From NCBI RefSeq assembly GCF_030013205.1, contig NZ_CP122648.1: DNA of 64,000 bases; one strand, given 5' to 3'. This stretch comes from Escherichia coli. GTDB taxonomy: Bacteria > Pseudomonadota > Gammaproteobacteria > Enterobacterales > Enterobacteriaceae. The notes beneath the pieces are model-generated. The model was not told the DNA's origin, searched no databases, and was given only the letters and a program-made list of their open reading frames with translations. Below are positions 27,261 through 27,366 of the stretch, one piece after another. Position 1 is the stretch's first letter; every line of letters begins with the position of its first letter. The translations under genes were made by a program, and so were the position numbers.

Positions 27261-27366
27261 AGAAACCTCCTGAGATCATACTGAAAAGAATAGGAGAGGG
27301 GGCGGGTAAAATCTATGTGTCAGAGGCAACGATGTTCCCGCTGTGGGCCACAGCGGGAATGAGGGA

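Follow-up and report, generated by a model that had tools for sequence, protein, structure and literature searches.

E. coli RNA polymerase requires a proximal U-tract for hairpin-dependent release, and REP/BIME elements serve as intercistronic or 3′ stabilizers of mRNA, for example at malE-malF. Dar & Sorek described Rho-dependent E. coli transcripts that end at stable U-less stem-loops followed by sequence with more C than G; these stem-loops shield the 3′ ends from PNPase and RNase II, and terminator type could switch by a change in U content alone (PMC6061677). We analyzed a palindrome that follows yedE and yedF, which have been given as a two-gene operon (PMC5927463). Like the members of the Dar & Sorek class, it forms a stable GC-rich stem-loop at a gene end with no U-rich tail, has the energetics of intrinsic terminators, and is followed by sequence enriched in C over G, and its orthologs differ mainly by U content past the stem, as predicted for that class (PMC6061677); unlike them, it is known here from sequence, and a co-directional gene with a putative promoter starts 74 nt downstream. 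It shares its position past a stop codon, stem length, loop size, and stability with canonical intrinsic terminators, but the U-tract, their defining feature, is missing from the E. coli copy. As a palindromic extragenic hairpin between co-directional genes, and a potential block to 3′ exonucleases, it is reminiscent of REP/BIME elements, but it is single-copy and does not carry the REP consensus. It also recalls a LexA SOS box, in that it contains CTGT...ACAG and precedes a gene with the name "SOS response-associated peptidase", but the spacing is 5 nt rather than 8 and the gene, yedK, is RpoS-dependent in published data.

The window, that is, the whole stretch of DNA that was analyzed, comprises 64,000 nucleotides of an E. 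coli genome (NZ_CP122648.1). The palindrome occupies 27335-27359 and reads TTCCCGCTGTGG-G-CCACAGCGGGAA, with 12-nt arms that are 100% complementary and a 1-nt center, and is thus the perfect 12+1+12 palindrome given in the first-pass annotation. All three neighboring genes are on the minus strand, so the center base is C on the coding strand. yedE (27597-28802, 401 aa) opens the yedEF operon and shares 4 nt with the start of yedF; yedF (27367-27600) encodes a 77-aa TusA-like protein according to both the ORF list and the RefSeq annotation of the identical DNA, and ends in a TAA stop codon at 27369-27367; and yedK (26592-27260) encodes a 222-aa member of the SRAP/HMCES family as a separate transcription unit 3′ of the hairpin. 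Seven nucleotides (27360-27366) lie between the yedF stop and the palindrome and 74 nt (27334-27261) between the palindrome and the yedK ATG (27260-27258), which agrees with the original description of a site 8 bp past the yedF stop and about 75 bp from the yedK start, with yedF and yedK on one strand. The window has four distinct sites (six nested hits) at which a perfect inverted repeat has arms of 12 nt or more and a loop of 0 to 8 nt; because 100 dinucleotide-preserving shuffles of the window average only 0.01 such repeats, the palindrome at 27335-27359 is non-random and not a product of chance. The region 27200-27450 is matched by 5377 of 5426 complete E. coli genomes at 96 to 100% identity. 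A BLAST search of the 5426 E. coli genomes with the 39-nt site found it once per genome, the two places reported being the two strands of one palindrome.

In the sense-strand RNA the palindrome folds into an 11-bp stem with a 3-nt loop (5′ arm 27359-27349, loop 27348-27346, 3′ arm 27345-27335, minus strand) in the 3′ UTR of yedEF, with a predicted energy of −18.9 kcal/mol (z = −5.1; shuffle mean −7.2; none of 200 shuffles equally stable). The RNA cannot form the 12th pair of the palindrome, which would leave a loop of 1 nt, and this pair is not conserved: at base 12 of the 5′ arm E. coli strains carry G, A (K-12), or T, and the perfect 12+1+12 form is only one allele. Across nine E. coli haplotypes all changes within the palindrome are confined to the loop and the apical pair, so that some haplotypes have 11 bp and a 3-nt loop and others 10 bp and a 5-nt loop. 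None of the lower 10 bp of the stem changes in these haplotypes, while neighboring non-coding bases vary (0 of 20 stem positions variable vs about 13 of about 59 other intergenic positions; p about 0.015 in a rough hypergeometric estimate). Elsewhere in the spacer, a 9-nt inverted repeat, ACACAUAGA / UCUAUGUGU in the sense RNA, pairs 27312-27320 with 27255-27263 across 48 nt; this pairing is present in the MFE fold and would bury the yedK start codon. We discarded it as a means of hiding the yedK start, as it is down to 7 to 8 bp, without compensation, in other E. coli variants.

Conservation across the Enterobacteriaceae had been proposed as a check on the palindrome, and we surveyed its orthologs with a YedF scan that took one genome per species and gave 80 loci. 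A UCCC...GGGA hairpin stands 7 to 9 nt past the yedF stop in 15 of the 80, mainly in Escherichia, Salmonella, and Citrobacter: its carriers are Escherichia lineages, E. whittamii, Salmonella enterica subsp. arizonae and diarizonae, several Citrobacter, and one Enterobacter. It is 23 nt long in every copy except that of Enterobacter, while the loop, the upper stem, and the flanks all vary among orthologs. RNAalifold independently predicted the same 11 pairs, five of them with compensatory double changes, and a 13-pair structure that we specified ourselves has double changes at seven pairs. For this 13-pair structure the covariation score, drawn from a set of only 13 distinct related sequences, is 0.314 vs 0.182 ± 0.023 in shuffles and was reached by 0 of 500 of them; it falls to 0.11 or below when the 3′ partners are slid by one to three columns. 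On the yedF-sense strand we counted nine G-U wobbles vs three A-C cells (A-C being the wobbles of the opposite strand), an excess that leans weakly toward the sense transcript as the conserved molecule, the sequences not being phylogenetically independent. A covariance model of the hairpin family matched only the yedF position in 335 kb of loci, and in the window its sole other significant match was an unrelated palindrome at 52230-52261 (20.6 bits). Judged from these sequence comparisons, the E. coli hairpin, with its 10 to 11 bp and 3- to 5-nt loop, is an ortholog of the hairpin that follows yedF in related Escherichia, Salmonella, and Citrobacter, and an orthologous single-locus element rather than a dispersed repeat.

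Almost every species has a strong hairpin close behind yedF: taken over all 80, the best one has a median energy of −18.4 kcal/mol and a median start 5 nt past the stop, vs a median of −14.7 kcal/mol for the best hairpin in a yedE-internal control; with the control fairly stable too, hairpin stability alone is moderately informative and not decisive. Several loci have textbook terminators with T-tracts after yedF (L060 and L072, for example). In 13 of the 80 species a REP-like palindrome (GCCGGAT...ATCCGGC) stands directly past the yedF stop in place of the UCCC...GGGA hairpin, at about 2235-2290 of the locus (L007, L008, L012, L013, L018, L020, L021, L025, L026, L032, L038, L043, and L053), which looks like functional replacement at one site. 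The spacer between the yedF stop and the hairpin is itself kept at 7 to 9 nt in Escherichia, Salmonella, and Citrobacter while its sequence is almost wholly different; at this spacing a terminating ribosome would overlap the base of the stem, and the fixed length may be chance in a short spacer or may be a real constraint.

The comparisons also indicate that the hairpin belongs with yedF and not with yedK. Only 2 of the 80 loci, both from Franconibacter, have yedK within 2 kb of yedF; the hairpin is also found where yedK is absent, and its position past the yedF stop is fixed whatever the downstream gene. The sequence 3′ of the hairpin differs by lineage. In sister Escherichia, sequence homologous to the window extends from a point upstream of yedE as far as 27336, the last base but one of the hairpin, and beyond this point lies different DNA, including a 134-aa ORF in the place of yedK. 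The reverse-complemented fliE stop is 45 nt past the yedF stop in Citrobacter braakii, Citrobacter sp. FP75, and Citrobacter sp. MGH106, where the hairpin is the sole structure in this convergent yedF/fliE gap. Other Citrobacter and Salmonella have 0.6 to 2 kb between the yedF hairpin and fliE, and in E. coli the distance from hairpin to fliE is about 2.9 kb (yedK, yedL, yedN, and on to an intG integrase pseudogene). The content of this hairpin-to-fliE segment, which corresponds to about 24400-27335 in the window, is highly variable among loci (L009, L016, L011, L023, and L017). One E. coli strain, MLI105 (NZ_CP116929.1, hit H30), matches the 27200-27450 query only from base 84 onward (window position about 27283) and has a gene for a DUF4158-domain protein annotated beside yedF, which suggests a mobile-element insertion in its yedF-yedK spacer.

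Several described elements were considered for this site and set aside. An Rfam scan of 26000-29500 at E values up to 10 gave no relevant match. A dispersed REP/BIME repeat does not fit a single site per E. coli genome lacking a GCCGGATG...CTTATCCGGC-type consensus. A SECIS-like element was considered with the selenium link of yedEF in mind, and was dismissed since yedF ends in TAA (in one species in TAG) and not in UGA, and since the hairpin lies outside the coding region. A LexA box was rejected on spacing: the site reads CTGT-N5-ACAG, as noted at the outset, where the LexA dyad is CTGT-N8-ACAG (consensus TACTG(TA)5CAGTA). The earlier judgment that this is not a canonical SOS box is upheld by the spacing of 5 rather than 8 and by a LexA-box search that found none near yedK; the window has a single exact CTGT-N8-ACAG, at 59412, where chance alone would give 0.72.

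For termination, the sequence past the stem matters most. The GC-rich stem-loop stands past a stop codon on the sense strand, as in an intrinsic terminator, and the 7- to 8-nt U-rich tract that would directly follow the stem of such a terminator is missing. The sense-strand tail past the hairpin is CATCGTTG; its beginning, CAUCGUUG, has 3 U in 8 positions and none in the first two. There is no T-tract after the palindrome on either strand, and a consensus terminator scan made no call at the hairpin or in the yedF-yedK spacer. The first-pass annotation was therefore right that a flanking U-tract is absent and that this is not a classical intrinsic terminator, and, with no U-tract in E. coli, efficient termination by RNA polymerase at the hairpin alone is not expected. 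Among the orthologs, the stem is followed at once by TTTTT in Citrobacter sp. MGH106, and T-tracts lie 3 to 4 nt from it in Salmonella arizonae and diarizonae; a T-tract is thus present in only 3 of the 13 distinct members of the hairpin family (L016, L017, and L019) and absent in the rest, including E. coli.

Past the tail is a C-rich, G-poor tract (27275-27320, minus strand) that, by analogy with the sites of PMC6061677, is a candidate Rho-loading (rut-like) region. It has 13 C vs 2 G per 30 nt over 27320-27281, the whole 74-nt spacer has 23 C and 11 G, and the tract is conserved in E. coli variants; it is only about 45 nt long and overlaps the putative yedK promoter, and its composition may have another cause. 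Published 3′-end maps have no entry here: the Term-seq and bicyclomycin tables of PMC7815308 list no RNA 3′ end or Rho-dependent region in K-12 2009500-2010499, a span that includes the predicted yedEF end at or just past 27335 (K-12 about 2009744-2009750), and TERMITe and SMRT-Cappable-seq have no 3′-end entry for yedF, yedK, or the coordinates of the site. Within yedE, a Rho termination region is listed at K-12 2008838 on the plus strand (score 3.47, significance 1.7e-5; PMC7815308, Supplementary file 2), which corresponds to about position 28240 of the window, minus strand. This region suggests that few transcripts reach the hairpin under the conditions of PMC7815308, in which the operon is probably poorly expressed. 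Rho may cut yedEF transcription short in standard media.

The spacer also appears to contain a promoter for yedK. We read from the sequence a putative sigma-S-type −10 element, CTATTCT, at 27287-27293 (minus strand), 26 nt before the yedK ATG, by likening it to the sigma-S consensus; the predicted yedK start site is about 7 nt downstream of CTATTCT. It is invariant in E. coli variants, and Franconibacter, which also has the order yedF-hairpin-yedK, has CTATACTTA about as far ahead of its yedK ATG. The Shine-Dalgarno sequence of yedK, AGGAGG, lies at 27266-27271 (minus strand), 5 nt before the ATG, and has been recorded as AGGAGGU (PMC9841429). A consensus sigma-70 scan called no promoter in the yedF-yedK spacer, and the only sigma-70-like matches in 26400-29100 are upstream of yedE, at 28847-28920. 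Published expression data point the same way. The ratio of yedK expression between wild type and rpoS mutant is 43 in EDL933 (PMC2907692); at the transition to stationary phase in O157:H7 Sakai, yedE changes by −2.15, yedF by −2.78, and yedK by +2.55 (PMC2241611); and an iModulon active under anaerobic conditions contains yedEF but not yedK (PMC7888660). CTATTCT fits the published RpoS dependence and stationary-phase induction of yedK, whose transcription appears to start from an RpoS-dependent promoter of its own, situated between the hairpin and the yedK ribosome-binding site. Because the published data show independent and opposite regulation, yedEF and yedK are transcriptionally separate units, which excludes the single unprocessed yedEFK mRNA that had been named as the finding that would count against a separating element. 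An SOS link drawn from the "SOS-associated" name of yedK is a red herring, the published array data pointing to RpoS dependence.

Other palindromes in the window were also recorded. The other perfect 12+1+12 palindrome, AGCCAATTTGTC-A-GACAAATTGGCT at 50989-51013, is followed on the plus strand by TTTTCCTTATGTCTTTTCC and, by its sequence, looks like an ordinary intrinsic terminator. A perfect 11+1+11 palindrome, CCCCTCTGCAT-G-ATGCAGAGGGG, at 52234-52256 lies between two co-directional ORFs (51178-52218 and 52243-53802), which from their map position may be araF and araG, and overlaps the ATG of the second; it is the second-best match to the covariance model of the yedF hairpin (20.6 bits), a likeness of shape only. 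At 8925-8955, ACACCAGGCCGGAT-CAC-ATCCGGCCTGGTGT (14+3+14) lacks a T-tract and contains a REP-like core, GCCGGAT, and at 1891-1922, AGCCTGAGTTCG-N8-CGAACTCAGGCT is preceded by AAAAAA and is terminator-like on the minus strand.

We consider it likely that the palindrome acts at the RNA level, as the 3′-terminal stem-loop of the yedEF mRNA. Of the two functions offered for it originally, an RNA stability or processing hairpin separating yedEF from yedK is favored by the covariation, the fixed position after yedF, and the independent regulation of the two units, and a protein-binding site is disfavored. In its fuller form, our best explanation is that the palindrome is probably a 3′-end-defining, exonuclease-blocking stem-loop that belongs to the Rho-associated, U-less class. 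Transcription would proceed a short distance beyond the hairpin, where the untranslated C-rich, G-poor tract would engage Rho and bring about termination; 3′-to-5′ exonucleases (PNPase and RNase II) would then trim the transcript back until halted by the stem-loop. The hairpin would in this way set and stabilize the mature 3′ end of the yedEF mRNA and hold the anaerobically induced yedEF apart from yedK with its apparent RpoS-dependent promoter. This specific route, Rho termination on the C-rich tract followed by exonucleolytic trimming to the hairpin, is drawn by analogy, and we put its chances somewhat short of even. We also speculated that the hairpin and the C-rich tract may together act as a conditional gate and not as a fixed end: with a spacing of 7 to 9 nt, a ribosome terminating at the yedF stop would melt the base of the stem, so that translation of yedF would decide hairpin formation and Rho loading and would tune read-through from yedEF into yedK, whose product functions in the repair of abasic sites. 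We regard such a gate as very unlikely.

The main rival to a Rho-associated end is a weak or atypical intrinsic terminator, in which the hairpin would release polymerase partially, perhaps with NusA/NusG, and without Rho; it differs from the best explanation only in the mode of polymerase release. The poor tail, with 3 U in 8, the lack of a call in the consensus scan, the established need of E. coli RNA polymerase for a proximal U-tract, and the presence of a T-tract in only 3 of 13 distinct family members make this reading unlikely, although the geometry and energy of the stem and loop are typical of terminators, the Citrobacter sp. MGH106 ortholog has a canonical TTTTT and the Salmonella orthologs have T-tracts near their stems, and yedEF and yedK act as separate units. 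Sites of this kind have also been discussed as inefficient intrinsic terminators, backed by Rho, and as transition states (PMC6061677), which counts in its favor. The hairpin could instead be an evolutionary relic, an old yedF/fliE hairpin retained after about 2.9 kb was gained, without a significant function in E. coli. The 45-nt yedF-fliE spacer with its hairpin in Citrobacter, set against about 2.9 kb in E. coli, and the absence of a reported 3′ end at the site in the PMC7815308 tables are what such a history would leave. A relic would not be expected to keep its lower 10 bp invariant in nine E. coli haplotypes while adjacent bases vary, to retain pairing across genera through compensatory changes, or to have other hairpins or REP elements take its position where the family hairpin is missing, and we consider this explanation quite unlikely.

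Two further readings place the function in the DNA. A dimeric transcription factor could bind the dyad, whose center is about 70 bp ahead of the presumed yedK start site, and control yedK. The perfect dyad symmetry, the location upstream of the putative yedK promoter, and the regulation of yedK independently of yedEF are in line with such an operator, but the element is retained 7 to 9 nt past yedF even in genomes without a nearby yedK, the compensatory and G-U changes in its arms preserve pairing and not sequence, and its center and apical pair vary within E. coli. It is also not a LexA box, and as a single copy it has no further genomic occurrences that would suggest a regulon. These same observations weigh against the protein-binding site originally suggested, and we hold an operator to be highly improbable. 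The 3′ edge of the hairpin could also be a recombination or integration target, an attachment site for the yedK...intG element and for other islands. Homology between E. coli and sister Escherichia stops at 27336 with different genes beyond, the end of the E. coli segment away from the hairpin holds an intG integrase pseudogene, and several Citrobacter and Salmonella carry inserts of 0.6 to 2 kb at this position past yedF. We nevertheless rate this as extremely improbable: there are no flanking direct repeats and no second (partial) copy of the hairpin near the fliE end, weak similarity extends about 10 nt past the hairpin in some lineages, and islands accumulate generically in gaps between convergent genes.

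The yedF hairpin is an ordinary gene-end hairpin of a known class, apparently one without an earlier description of its own, and it does not indicate a new kind of system. As a 3′-terminal stem-loop it would fix the 3′ boundary of the yedEF transcription unit, a result of modest practical value, and the analysis argues for yedK as a separate RpoS-dependent unit that is neither an SOS gene nor the third gene of the operon. Past yedF, the species surveyed offer an orthologous series at one position (a hairpin with a U-tract, a hairpin without one, and replacement by REP), which is usable for testing switching between intrinsic and Rho-dependent modes at bacterial gene ends. The family would also be a clean orthologous case of intrinsic/Rho-dependent switching through gain or loss of a U-tract.
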